DNA of 30,638 nucleotides from Verrucomicrobiota bacterium. GTDB lineage: Bacteria; Verrucomicrobiota; Verrucomicrobiia; Limisphaerales; CANJSG01. The notes under the pieces were generated by a model that was not told the origin of the DNA, did not search any database, and saw nothing but the letters and a program-made list of their open reading frames with translations. This document shows, in pieces, positions 3,506-6,516 of this stretch; positions within the stretch are counted from its first letter, which is position 1; every line of letters starts with the position of its first letter. The stretch spans positions 1-30,638 of the forward strand of contig JBBQXJ010000059.1 in assembly GCA_038209745.1 (NCBI GenBank). The letters are read 5' to 3'. A program made the translations under genes and the position numbers.

Positions 3506-4528
3506 CTACTTGAGCGGAACAGTCGCGATCGTCTGCAGGATACGGCCGGCGATCTGATACGGATCGCCCTGGGAGTTCGGACGGCGATCCTCGAGATAGC
3601 CCTTGTGGCCGCCGTTGACGAAGCTGTGCGGCACCCGGATGGAGGCGCCGCGGTTGGCCAGACCGTAGTTGAACTTGTCGATCGACTGGGTCTCGTGCAG
3701 ACCGGTCAGGCGGAGATGGTTGTCCGGGCCATACACGGCGATGTGCTCGTTCTTGTATTTGTCGAACGCCGCCATGAGAGATTCGAAGTAGTCCTTCCCG
3801 CCGACTTCGCGCATATGCTCGGTCGAGAAGTTGGCGTGCATGCCGGAGCCGTTCCAGTCGACGTCCTTGCCGAGCGGCTTGCAGTGCCAGTTGACGTCCA
3901 CGCCGTATTTTTCGGTGAGGCGGAGGAGGAGGTAGCGAGCCATCCACATCTCGTCGGCGGCTTTTTTGGAGCCCTTGCCGAAGATCTGGAATTCCCACTG
4001 GCCCTTGGCCACTTCGGCGTTGATGCCTTCGTGGTTGATGCCGGCGTCCAGACACTGGTCGAGGTGCTCTTCGACGATTTCGCGGGCGATGTCGCCGACG
4101 TTCTTGAAGCCGACACCCGTGTAGTATTCGCCCTGGGGAGAGGGGAATCCGTCTTCCGGAAAGCCCAGAGGCCTCCCGTCCTGATAGAAGAAATACTCCT
4201 GCTCGAAGCCGAACCAAGCACCCGGATCGTCCATGATGTTCGCCCTGGAATTGCTCGGGTGCGGGGTCTTGCAGTCGGGCATCATGACTTCGCACATGAC
4301 GAGAGCGCCGTTTTTGCGGGCGGGATCAGGATAGACCGCCACAGGCTTGAGCATGCAGTCGGAACTGCGGCCCTCGGCCTGCCGGGTCGAGCTGCCATCA
4401 AAACCCCACATCGGGAGTTCTTCGAGCTTGGGGAAGCCGCTGAACTCTTTGACCTGGGTTTTGCTGCGGAGGTTCGGGACGGGCTCGTAACCGTCGAGCC
4501 AGATGTATTCCAGTTTGTATTTCGCCAT
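3506..4528 (-). CDS. glnII: Glutamine synthetase type II
   Basis: 340 aa with [72 protein letters not shown] and YLEDRRP. Length and motifs are those of GSII, not GSI. Confidence 0.95.
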
Positions 4529-4580
4529 GGAAGTGGATAAAGGATTCTATTGTGGTGTTCCTAACGCAGAGAGACTTTTC

Positions 4581-4596
4581 AGCACTTAGGATGCCG
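4581..4596 (-). promoter_or_regulatory. Putative sigma54 (-24/-12) promoter of glnII
   Basis: Minus strand reads CGGCATCCTAAGTGCT: GG-N10-GC with exact sigma54 spacing, about 52 nt upstream of the glnII ATG. Confidence 0.6.
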
Positions 4597-4865
4597 TGAC
4601 GGAGCGAGACCATGCCGAGCCGGCCCAAGGAATCAAGACCGGGGACGGTTTCCGCGTTTAGGATGTGCCAATTGAGAATGCCAACCCCGTTTGCAAAACC
4701 CAGGATCTCGTCCTGGCAGAGCCTGCTTCAATTTGACCGGCTTGTTCCAAAACAAGCATCTTGATCAACAAGCGTTGTCCTCGACCTTGGATCAATCGCT
4801 CCGGAATCCTTCAACCAAATGAAACTTGGGGTTGCCACTTCCGGGGATCCCGTTAGCTCATCTCC

Positions 4866-5249
4866 ATGCTGAAAGTGAAGGACACGCTCCGGGCCACCGT
4901 CCACCTCAGCTTCGACGGCCGGGTCTTCAAGGTCTACCACGGCACCGATGCGCGGACCCGGTTCGACAAGGAGGTCAAGGTGTTGAAGTTTCTCGAAACC
5001 AAAAACTGCCCGTTCGTCCCCAGGCTGCTCGAAGCCGATCCGGTCAAGCTCCGCATCATCACCACCAATTGCGGCAAACGCGTGGAGCATCTCGACGACG
5101 ACCGGACCAAGGAAATCTTCGACGAGCTCCAACAGTATGGTGTCCGCCACGACGACGCCGAAGCGCGCAACATCACCTACCGGCAGGCCGACGGCCATTT
5201 TTGCGTGATCGATTTCGAATTCGCCACAATCCTATCGGACCCCGCTTAA
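4866..5249 (+). CDS. Minimal protein-kinase-like (PKL) fold protein, 127 aa
   Basis: Candidate beta3 Lys (VFK22), alphaC Glu (DKE36), catalytic loop H95-D-D97-x4-N102 and a DFG equivalent (ID116FE). The protein ends 11 aa after D116. Confidence 0.75.
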   Translation: MLKVKDTLRATVHLSFDGRVFKVYHGTDARTRFDKEVKVLKFLETKNCPFVPRLLEADPVKLRIITTNCGKRVEHLDDDRTKEIFDELQQYGVRHDDAEARNITYRQADGHFCVIDFEFATILSDPA

Positions 5250-5262
5250 CCGCCCGCCTTGC

Positions 5263-6105
5263 ATGGATCATCCTGCCCACCCGCCCGTCGCCACCGGATT
5301 GAAATGGTCCGGCTGCACAGACCGCGGCAAAATCCGCCCGAACAACGAAGACGCCTTTCTCGGCGTCCTGTTCGACGCCCGCGAGGTCCAGCGACTGGGC
5401 AAGATCGGTGAGGCTTCGACCGAACAGAACGACTTCGCCTTCGCCGTGAGCGACGGGATGGGCGGAGCGAAAGCGGGCGAGCTCGCCAGCCGTATCACCG
5501 TCGAAAAAATCACCACCTTGCTGCCCAAATCCTTCCAACAGCGCGCCGCAGGACTCGCCCCCGGGTTTTCCGACGTGTTGCCCGAGCTGTTCGCCCAGAT
5601 TCACCGCGCTTTGGTCGTCGTGGGGGACGCCTATGACGAATGTCGCGGGATGGAGGCGACGTTGAGCCTGTGCTGGTTCACCCCCGGCTGGATGTATTTC
5701 GGCCACGTCGGGGACAGTCGCATCTACTACCTCCCGGCCGGAGCGGACCAGCTCAAACAGCTGAGCGCGGACGACACCCATGTCGGGTGGCTGTTCCGAG
5801 CCGGCAAGATCAACGAGCGCGAAGCCCGGACCCATCCCCGCCGCAGCGTGTTGCAGAAATCGCTCGGTGGTGGAAACCAGTTCGTCGATCCCCAGCTTGG
5901 AGCCGTGGGCTACGAATCGGGCGATCTCTTTCTCATCTGCTCGGACGGGTTGGTGGACGGGCTCTATGACCGCAGTTTGGTGGAGTTGCTTCGGTCTCCC
6001 ACCGCGGCCCAATCCGCAGCCAGTCCCGCCCAGAGGCTGGTGACCGCCGCCGTGCAGGCCTCCGGCCGCGACAACACCACCGCCGTGGTCGTCGAGGTGC
6101 AGTGA
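5263..6105 (+). CDS. PP2C/PPM-family Ser/Thr protein phosphatase
   Basis: TDRGKIRPNNEDAF, VSDGMGG, HVGDSRIY, CSDGL and GRDNTT. It starts 13 nt after the kinase stop. Confidence 0.93.
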   Translation: MDHPAHPPVATGLKWSGCTDRGKIRPNNEDAFLGVLFDAREVQRLGKIGEASTEQNDFAFAVSDGMGGAKAGELASRITVEKITTLLPKSFQQRAAGLAPGFSDVLPELFAQIHRALVVVGDAYDECRGMEATLSLCWFTPGWMYFGHVGDSRIYYLPAGADQLKQLSADDTHVGWLFRAGKINEREARTHPRRSVLQKSLGGGNQFVDPQLGAVGYESGDLFLICSDGLVDGLYDRSLVELLRSPTAAQSAASPAQRLVTAAVQASGRDNTTAVVVEVQ

Positions 6106-6120
6106 GAAAAGGCACTCCCT

Positions 6121-6156
6121 AAAACGAAACGCCGGCCACAGCAGGTGTGGTCGGCG
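6121..6156 (-). terminator. Putative terminator for glnB, convergent with PP2C
   Basis: Stem cgccggccaca/tgtggtcggcg (6130-6156) followed on the minus strand by tttcgtttt. Confidence 0.6.
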
Positions 6157-6177
6157 CAATAAAGTCGGTCCGGATGA

Positions 6178-6516
6178 TCAGACCGCGTTCTCGCCGGTCT
6201 CTTCCGTGCGGATCCGGACCGCGTTCTCAATGGGGCTCACGAAAACCTTGCCGTCGCCGATCTTGCCCGTCTTGGCGGCCTTGACGATGGCGTCCACCGC
6301 GGCGGTCACCTGGGCATCGGTCACCACCAGCTCGACCTTGAGCTTCGGGAGGAAATCCACGGTGTATTCACTGCCACGATAGATCTCGGTGTGGCCCTTC
6401 TGCCGGCCGAATCCTTTGACCTCGCTGACGGTCATTCCCTCGATGCCAACGGCGGTCAGACCTTCCTTAACTTCGTCGAGCTTGAACGGCTTGATGATGG
6501 CTTCAATTTTCTTCAT
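6178..6516 (-). CDS. glnB: Nitrogen regulatory protein PII
   Basis: 112 aa with [25 protein letters not shown]-loop YRGS49EY51TVDFLPK and [11 protein letters not shown]. No adjacent amtB, so glnB rather than glnK. Confidence 0.95.

Follow-up and report, generated by a model that had tools for sequence, protein, structure and literature searches.

The stretch of DNA analysed here (the window) comprises 30,638 nucleotides (nt) of contig JBBQXJ010000059.1 from a Verrucomicrobiota bacterium (GenBank assembly GCA_038209745.1). It contains a two-gene module, encoding a 127-residue kinase-fold protein (MK) and a Ser/Thr phosphatase of the PP2C/PPM type. The module is located between glnII, the gene for a type II glutamine synthetase (GSII), and the gene for a GlnB-like PII protein. 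Judged from sequence comparisons, the MK-PP2C module looks like a unit dedicated to the divergently encoded GSII, and not like the missing PII kinase. An earlier note on this DNA had proposed PII and/or GSII as the target of the pair. The GSII part of that proposal is supported by the comparative evidence of co-occurrence and synteny; the part concerning Ser49 of PII is not. The shared presence and absence of the genes, together with the adjacency to glnII, indicate that the module belongs with GSII rather than with PII.

The phyletic distribution was analysed in 401 genomes across the phylum, with a threshold of E ≤ 1e-60 for GSII. MK was found in 77 genomes, all from one class. GSII was found in 84 genomes, 77 of them in the same class. 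Within the class, MK and GSII occur in exactly the same 77 genomes; related genomes in this sample are not independent counts. The match extends to the families in which both genes are patchy, where the tallies of MK and GSII are identical: 25 of 26 genomes in f6, 27 of 35 in f7, 3 of 31 in f8, and 4 of 5 in f12. The PP2C orthologue was detected at E ≤ 1.1e-53 in all 77 MK genomes, and at E ≤ 1e-80 in 76 of them. By comparison, the best E-value was 5.4e-33 among the 120 other genomes with any PP2C match.

Gene neighbourhoods were compared in 80 close loci and in 48 diverse loci from more than 40 genera. In the diverse set, glnII is divergent from and adjacent to MK in 40 loci, lies on the same strand behind PP2C in one, and falls outside the fetched stretch in seven. 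When the open reading frames (ORFs) of the diverse loci were clustered, only two groups were widely shared: MK/PP2C, present in 49 of 49 sources, and GSII, present in 42 of 49. The next real gene clusters were present in at most 13 sources. A check on linkage with nitrogen genes had been suggested in the earlier note, and it returned glnII as the partner of MK and PP2C, both in the genomes (77 of 77) and in the diverse loci (40 of 48). MK and GSII are located on different contigs in nine of the 77 genomes, and both are retained. In two genomes (G327 and G081), PP2C is still divergent from and adjacent to GSII, with MK encoded elsewhere. In G327 (locus L173, 3995-5784), the MK start and the stop of a magnesium transporter gene overlap; this gene, mgtE, encodes MgtE_N, CBS, and MgtE domains.

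The phosphatase contains the Pfam domains PP2C_2 (53.8 bits, cut-off 24) and PP2C (27.0 bits, cut-off 20.3). Its best NCBIfam match is Stp1/IreP (162.7 bits, cut-off 230). The nearest solved relatives are PstP (E = 7.7e-29), chain 2j82 (1.5e-23), and Stp1 (2.8e-21). The metal-binding Asp residues (D30, D64-G65, D151, D228-G229, and D270) are invariant in 45 sequences. All 80 close loci have PP2C immediately 3' of MK, as do 44 of the 48 diverse loci. Over all 128 loci, MK and PP2C are split but adjacent on one strand in 110, fused in frame in 14, and without a pair in four. The fusions were seen among close relatives and in one distant genus, and their linkers have about 12-15 residues. Longer proteins with an MK match at E ≤ 1e-5 number 756. 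The best 120 of these 756 are mostly about 400 residues long, with extra Pfam domains of the PP2C type only; a few shorter ones contain APH alone or no domain. Behind the MK domain, PP2C_2 scored above its cut-off in 13 of 18 representatives of the longer homologues scanned. Fused MK-PP2C polypeptides number in the hundreds among database proteins. A model of a natural fusion gave a predicted local distance difference test score (pLDDT) of 90.8 and a predicted template modelling score (pTM) of 0.71, which says little on domain packing. MK and PP2C are one functional unit, which is encoded by two genes here and by a single protein of about 400 residues in some relatives. In two loci from one genus (L085 and L086, in genomes G243 and G372), the MK matches have two in-frame TGA codons each; recoding, a broken gene, or a sequencing error is possible.

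MK is a conserved, truncated protein kinase-like protein. It was matched at E ≤ 0.001 by 7983 of 8000 scored candidates, and the best 120 homologues have 124-197 residues and 72-98% identity. With thousands of homologues, the 127-residue ORF is not a chance frame. The family is narrow: among 1.84 billion representatives at 50% identity, 277 were found at E ≤ 0.001 and 39 at E ≤ 1e-30. In a 30-sequence alignment extending down to 30% identity, K22, E36, H95, D97, Y105, D116, and F117 are invariant, and R101, N102, and E118 are at least 90% conserved. K22 corresponds to the β3 Lys and E36 to the helix-C Glu. The catalytic loop has the form H95-x-D97-x3-R101-N102, with H-x-D...N as its signature, and is followed by D116-F-E118, the DFG-equivalent, with D116 as its metal-binding Asp. 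D97 and D116, which the earlier note had picked out as catalytic residues, are thus invariant in all 30 sequences.

The structural comparisons agree with the kinase-fold assignment of the earlier note. The AlphaFold2 (AF2) model of MK has a mean pLDDT of 95.3 and a pTM of 0.87, with K22 in a strand (residues 19-24) and E36 in a helix (residues 29-45). A bilobal kinase fold was found, in which the C-lobe is represented by its first part only. The protein consists of the N-lobe, helix E, the catalytic loop, and the DFG-equivalent, and ends 11 residues past D116. Foldseek gave a probability of 1.00 for the fold and ranked Ark1 (171-173 residues) at the top, with an E-value of 5.8e-7 and 25% identity, followed by RIO1/2, Bud32/PRPK, CK2, and PknB. 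VIA structure comparison gave Z-scores of 12-13.6 against many kinases, over 111-126 aligned residues from the N-lobe to just past the DFG. Here Ark1 showed the lowest root-mean-square deviation (2.6 Å; Z = 12.0, 26% identity), and the Z-scores of PRPK and Rio2 were 12.7 and 12.6, respectively. A profile search of the PDB sequences aligned the stretch from the catalytic loop to the DFG with Cdc7 and CK2 (E = 4e-6).

Several elements of ordinary protein kinases were looked for in the MK sequence and AF2 model and are absent. MK has neither helices F to I nor an activation segment with its APE motif, and in place of the glycine-rich loop it has a glycine-free turn, K-D-T-x-R, between strands 1 and 2. 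The Pkinase family (PF00069) gave no match at the MK locus in the search of the bacterium's own genome, and does not occur among the Pfam matches of MK. The match to APH (PF01636) reaches 23.1 bits, just below the cut-off of 23.2, and is confined to the last 40 residues. Four relatives pass this cut-off (P0145 with 37.0 bits, P0134 with 30.4, P0147 with 29.3, and P0140 with 28.9). Further weak matches are to the Kdo, choline-kinase, and Bud32 families. Several sources name the homologues Bud32/KEOPS kinase; the score of MK against the Bud32 family NF011460 is 14.9 bits, below the cut-off of 199. Ark1/ArkI is described as a member of the eukaryotic protein kinase (ePK) superfamily that phosphorylates the 2'-OH of tRNA U47 (PMC9095486, PMC10622864). 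A kinase fold alone is therefore no proof of a protein substrate. ArkI bears a positively charged tRNA-binding patch (PMC9095486). The MK domain is near neutral, with a median net charge of -1 and an isoelectric point of 6.5 in 30 sequences.

Reversible Ser/Thr phosphorylation of GSII by a dedicated MK-PP2C unit is tentatively preferred as the most likely mechanism. MK would transfer phosphate from ATP to a Ser or Thr residue in GSII, PP2C would strip the phosphate off, and the activity or stability of GSII might be set post-translationally in this way. We infer three elements of this scheme: phosphotransfer by MK, a protein as its substrate, and GSII itself as that protein. A wider proposal is possible but more doubtful. 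According to it, MK, with its 127 residues, might be the smallest enzyme seen so far in which a protein-kinase fold is self-sufficient; with PP2C it might form a split or fused bifunctional GSII kinase/phosphatase. Reversible phosphorylation might then serve Verrucomicrobia to regulate a glutamine synthetase of the eukaryotic type alongside the GlnD-PII system, and no description of bacterial nitrogen control of this kind was found in the papers searched.

Several observations weigh against phosphorylation of GSII by MK. Seven genomes outside the class have GSII without MK, so GSII does not require the module; their GSIIs are only 59-63% identical. The three genes are usually adjacent, and joint loss by one deletion is therefore expected. 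In ordinary protein kinases, peptide substrates are bound by an activation segment and by C-lobe helices, which MK does not have. With Ark1 (an RNA 2'-OH kinase), RIO, and Bud32 as the closest small structural relatives, protein phosphorylation is not a given. In the bacterium's own genome, the PP2C of the window is the only PP2C_2 match beside 18 Pkinase matches, so it could serve other kinases too. Among the Ser and Thr columns of GSII, none clearly marks the module-bearing genomes. At two positions, 41 module-linked GSIIs share T236 and S302, and the seven module-less GSIIs of the phylum have other residues. Eukaryotic GSII has Ser/Thr at both positions as well. T236 and S302 were too weak to be named as phospho-sites and were kept as leads only.

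An alternative proposal is the switch of the cyanobacterial type, in which MK would write and PP2C would erase the phosphate on Ser49 of PII, here outside the cyanobacteria. The T-loop of the PII in the window reads I-Y-R-G-S49-E-Y51-T, with Ser49 and Tyr51 as the earlier note had it. The same IYRGSEYT loop occurs in all 47 PII matches in the loci and in both copies of the bacterium's own genome; the second copy neighbours amtB on contig C65. In the window, 72 nt separate PII from PP2C, and PII is near the pair in 42 of 80 close loci, about 1.5-4 kb beyond PP2C. The phosphatase also matches chain 2j82 (which we take to be a PphA homologue), but PstP is the better match. In the diverse set, PII was near the pair in only one of 48 loci and was not among the widely shared neighbour clusters; its adjacency to the pair is limited to the window's own order. 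Moreover, the own genome encodes a full-length GlnD (672 bits, cut-off 519). Of 121 genomes of the class, 100 have a GlnD that passes this cut-off, and they include families that carry the module as well as families that do not. The usual route of Tyr51 uridylylation is thus available. With PII near the pair in one order only and GlnD present, the adjacency in the window is best read as a local nitrogen gene cluster. The statement of the earlier note that the PII kinase has not been identified agrees with PMC4285133 and PMC11863333 for cyanobacteria, a point in favour of this switch. However, PMC4285133 also reports that Ser49 is conserved without being phosphorylated in Prochlorococcus and Anabaena, and PMC11863333 that spkI, the kinase gene beside pphA in Synechocystis, is non-essential for PII phosphorylation and is not the PII kinase. 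As the presence of the module also tracks GSII, a role as writer and eraser of PII-Ser49 is most improbable.

The suggested lead to the cyanobacterial PII kinase is likewise not borne out, given the narrow family (277 representatives among 1.84 billion proteins) and the restriction of the 77 phylum genomes to one class. No cyanobacterial MK homologue emerged in the protein and phylum searches, which did not include a profile search aimed at cyanobacterial genomes. One locus labelled cyanobacterial (L074) shows Verrucomicrobial synteny at 80-85% protein identity, and from this synteny it is probably mis-binned. The glnII-MK-PP2C synteny occurs in seven loci in all (L074, L006, L024, L042, L056, L077, and L080) whose metagenome-assembled genomes bear the labels Cyanophyceae, Methylomirabilota, Acidoferrum, Bifidobacterium, or Klebsiella, probably through errors of binning or labelling. 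One MK copy is present in each of the genomes that contain L074, L006, and L024.

Two further observations concern the surroundings of PII. In a locus of a close relative (L003, 3094-4566 and 7817-9560, both on the minus strand), a type I glnA adjoins glnII, and glnK-amtB is convergent with PP2C. The ammonium transporter gene amtB is thus located between PP2C and PII in that locus, which is probably the usual arrangement in the close loci with PII nearby, and none is found there in the window. On the other side of PII, the window encodes a two-subunit 2-oxoacid:ferredoxin oxidoreductase (6618-9541, plus strand), divergent to PII, with POR_N, POR, and PFOR_II domains followed by TPP_enzyme_C. 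The pairing would be notable if its substrate were 2-oxoglutarate, the PII effector.

The remaining alternatives concern the role of MK and the breadth of the phosphatase. MK might be a nucleotide-binding or ATPase regulatory domain that gates PP2C, with the phosphate on GSII or another nitrogen protein written by a Hanks kinase. RIO and Bud32, which would be the models for such a domain, are ATPase-like, ATP-driven switches, and RIO1/2 and Bud32/PRPK are among the closest folds of MK. The gating role is also consistent with the end of MK right past the DFG-equivalent and its missing peptide-binding lobe, with the short linker and the model scores of the fusions, and with the 18 Pkinase matches in the own genome. 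Against it stands the strict or nearly strict conservation of the full catalytic set of MK, in which D97 is the base and N102 and D116 are metal ligands; but an ATPase would keep identical residues, so this conservation does not separate the two possibilities. A physical subunit of PP2C fits less well with G327 and G081, where MK is encoded away from PP2C. Gating of PP2C by MK is considered unlikely.

The module might also act in GSII biology on a different target, which could be a protein that regulates glnII expression, some other protein of nitrogen metabolism, or no protein at all. In divergent gene pairs, the product of one gene often regulates the other. RNA or metabolites can be substrates of small kinase-fold enzymes, and the APH, Kdo, and choline kinase matches of MK are to small-molecule kinase families. 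The top Foldseek match is itself a tRNA 2'-OH kinase (PMC9095486, PMC10622864). On the other hand, the only recurrent fusion partner of MK is PP2C, a type of phosphatase that acts on proteins. The MK domain is also near neutral, unlike the charged patch described for ArkI (PMC9095486), and the ORF clustering offered no third conserved neighbour as a candidate target. A different target is quite unlikely. Finally, PP2C could be a general Stp-type phosphatase, with MK as an accessory and the adjacency to glnII without functional meaning. Its best NCBIfam match to Stp1/IreP and its position as the only PP2C_2 match against 18 Pkinase matches are in line with a general role. By contrast, the orthologue is confined to the 77 genomes with MK and GSII, the other genomes having distant PP2C matches or none, and PP2C remains beside GSII where MK has moved. 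A general phosphatase of this kind is very unlikely.

The module shares features with several known systems. Like the cyanobacterial PII-Ser49/PphA system, it has a PP2C in a nitrogen-control setting, a Ser49 in the PII T-loop, and homology to 2j82. Unlike that system, the module tracks GSII, GlnD is present, and the family occurs in one Verrucomicrobiota class among the samples searched. The PrkC-PrpC, PknB-PstP, and Stk1-Stp1 pairs also have adjacent, co-oriented kinase and PP2C genes, and the PP2C here is closest to PstP and Stp1. PrkC of B. subtilis is listed as phosphorylating GlnA (PMC6213207), which is a precedent for the preferred mechanism. MK differs from these Hanks kinases in its length of 127 residues and in having no activation segment, C-lobe helices, membrane anchor, or PASTA domains. 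The order here is also kinase and then phosphatase, the two are often one polypeptide, and the module is tied to one metabolic gene. The minimal kinases ArkI/Ark1, Bud32/PRPK, and RIO1/RIO2 have a truncated C-lobe and are the best structural matches to MK. They differ in size (127 residues in MK versus 171-173 in Ark1), in charge, as MK is near neutral, and in family score, as MK is below the Bud32 cut-off. The partners of MK are PP2C and GSII, and not tRNA enzymes, KEOPS, or ribosomes.

A further parallel is found in metabolic enzymes with their own modifying enzyme. GlnE adenylylates type I glutamine synthetase (GSI), and AceK is the kinase/phosphatase of isocitrate dehydrogenase. The proposed logic of one writer/eraser unit per enzyme is the same, and here the unit is sometimes one polypeptide. 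However, the module is not homologous to GlnE, and its writer and eraser would be separate domains of known phospho-signalling families. In the bacterium's own genome, which is 92% complete, the search for the GlnE family gave a sole match of 23.8 bits, located inside the GlnD frame; the lack of a GlnE match elsewhere counts in favour of the GSII mechanism. One further gene of the glutamine synthetase family is present in this genome, on contig C35.

The layout of the locus is listed in the table. The four-gene arrangement described in the earlier note was recovered with the same coordinates and strands. GSII passes the Pfam cut-offs for both Gln-synt_N and Gln-synt_C, and NF041605 (GlnII) is by far its best model (E = 1.8e-113, 379 bits, equivalog cut-off 500). 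The starts of the divergent glnII and MK genes are 337 nt apart, and PP2C follows MK after a gap of 13 nt (5250-5262). PP2C and PII are convergent, with 72 nt between them and terminator-like hairpins in the gap.

Features of the glnII-MK-PP2C-PII locus in the window
Feature	Position	Strand	Basis
glnII, type II glutamine synthetase, 340 residues, conserved partner of the module	3506-4528	-	ORF list, Pfam and NCBIfam
Terminator-like hairpin, 11 pairs and T run, directly past the glnII stop	3448-3474	-	
Divergent spacer between glnII and MK, 337 nt, presumably with both promoters	4529-4865	.	
MK, 127-residue truncated protein-kinase-like protein	4866-5249	+	ORF list, conservation, fold
PP2C/PPM Ser/Thr phosphatase, 280 residues	5263-6105	+	PP2C_2 and PP2C Pfam
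Terminator-like hairpins in the convergent gap between PP2C and PII	6111-6185	-	
PII, GlnB-like, 112 residues, T-loop Y-R-G-S49-E-Y51	6178-6516	-	P-II, 113 bits

A scan of the glnII-MK spacer revealed no sigma-70 consensus site and no sigma-54-like site; for the latter, the whole window has nine matches against 13 expected, none of them in the spacer. Among 102 homologous spacers, the sampled lengths range from 112 to 428 nt, and word counts found only a weak recurrent word, present in about 10. The DNA stretch of the window is present in 19 sediment or soil DNA runs. In the one RNA run (X20, a soil metatranscriptome), contigs of relatives with at least 85% likeness fall only on glnII and PII, and MK/PP2C is practically free of them. 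These contigs come from relatives, and thus allow no inference on the expression or co-transcription of MK and PP2C.

On the other side of glnII, a 454-residue ORF (1971-3335, plus strand) is located between a proA-like aldehyde dehydrogenase gene and glnII. It has no Pfam or NCBIfam match, and its place next to glnII is conserved in the close loci L005 and L116. Its look-alikes are Verrucomicrobial hypothetical proteins, which point weakly to glutathionylspermidine synthase and glutathione synthetase (ATP-grasp ligases). Two further regions of the window (10313-14128 and 16901-22305, both on the minus strand) encode a ParA-like ATPase, subunits of a cbb3-type cytochrome oxidase (FixO-like, COX1, and cytochrome c), an NrfD-like membrane protein, and a 1310-residue iron-sulfur protein. 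The respiratory genes are ordinary and unrelated to the finding on MK, PP2C, and GSII.

To our knowledge, the post-translational control of bacterial GSII is poorly described; GSI has the GlnE/PII/GlnD cascade, and we know of no such system for GSII. Kinase/PP2C pairs and phospho-regulated glutamine synthetases are already known kinds. The 127-residue kinase, the MK-PP2C fusion, and the strict tie to glnII set this module apart from them. In a literature search that left most subscription journals outside, no paper connected glnII with a small kinase and PP2C in Verrucomicrobia. The Global Ocean Sampling (GOS) paper treats bacterial PP2Cs and type II glutamine synthetases separately (PMC1821046).

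The analysis removes a tempting false lead, as MK is probably not the missing PII kinase. The very small kinase-fold family is useful for asking how little of the fold is enough for catalysis and substrate choice. In a class of abundant soil and freshwater bacteria, a kinase-phosphatase unit has been gained, lost, and sometimes fused together, tracking glnII throughout, and it provides a testable candidate for the control of GSII.

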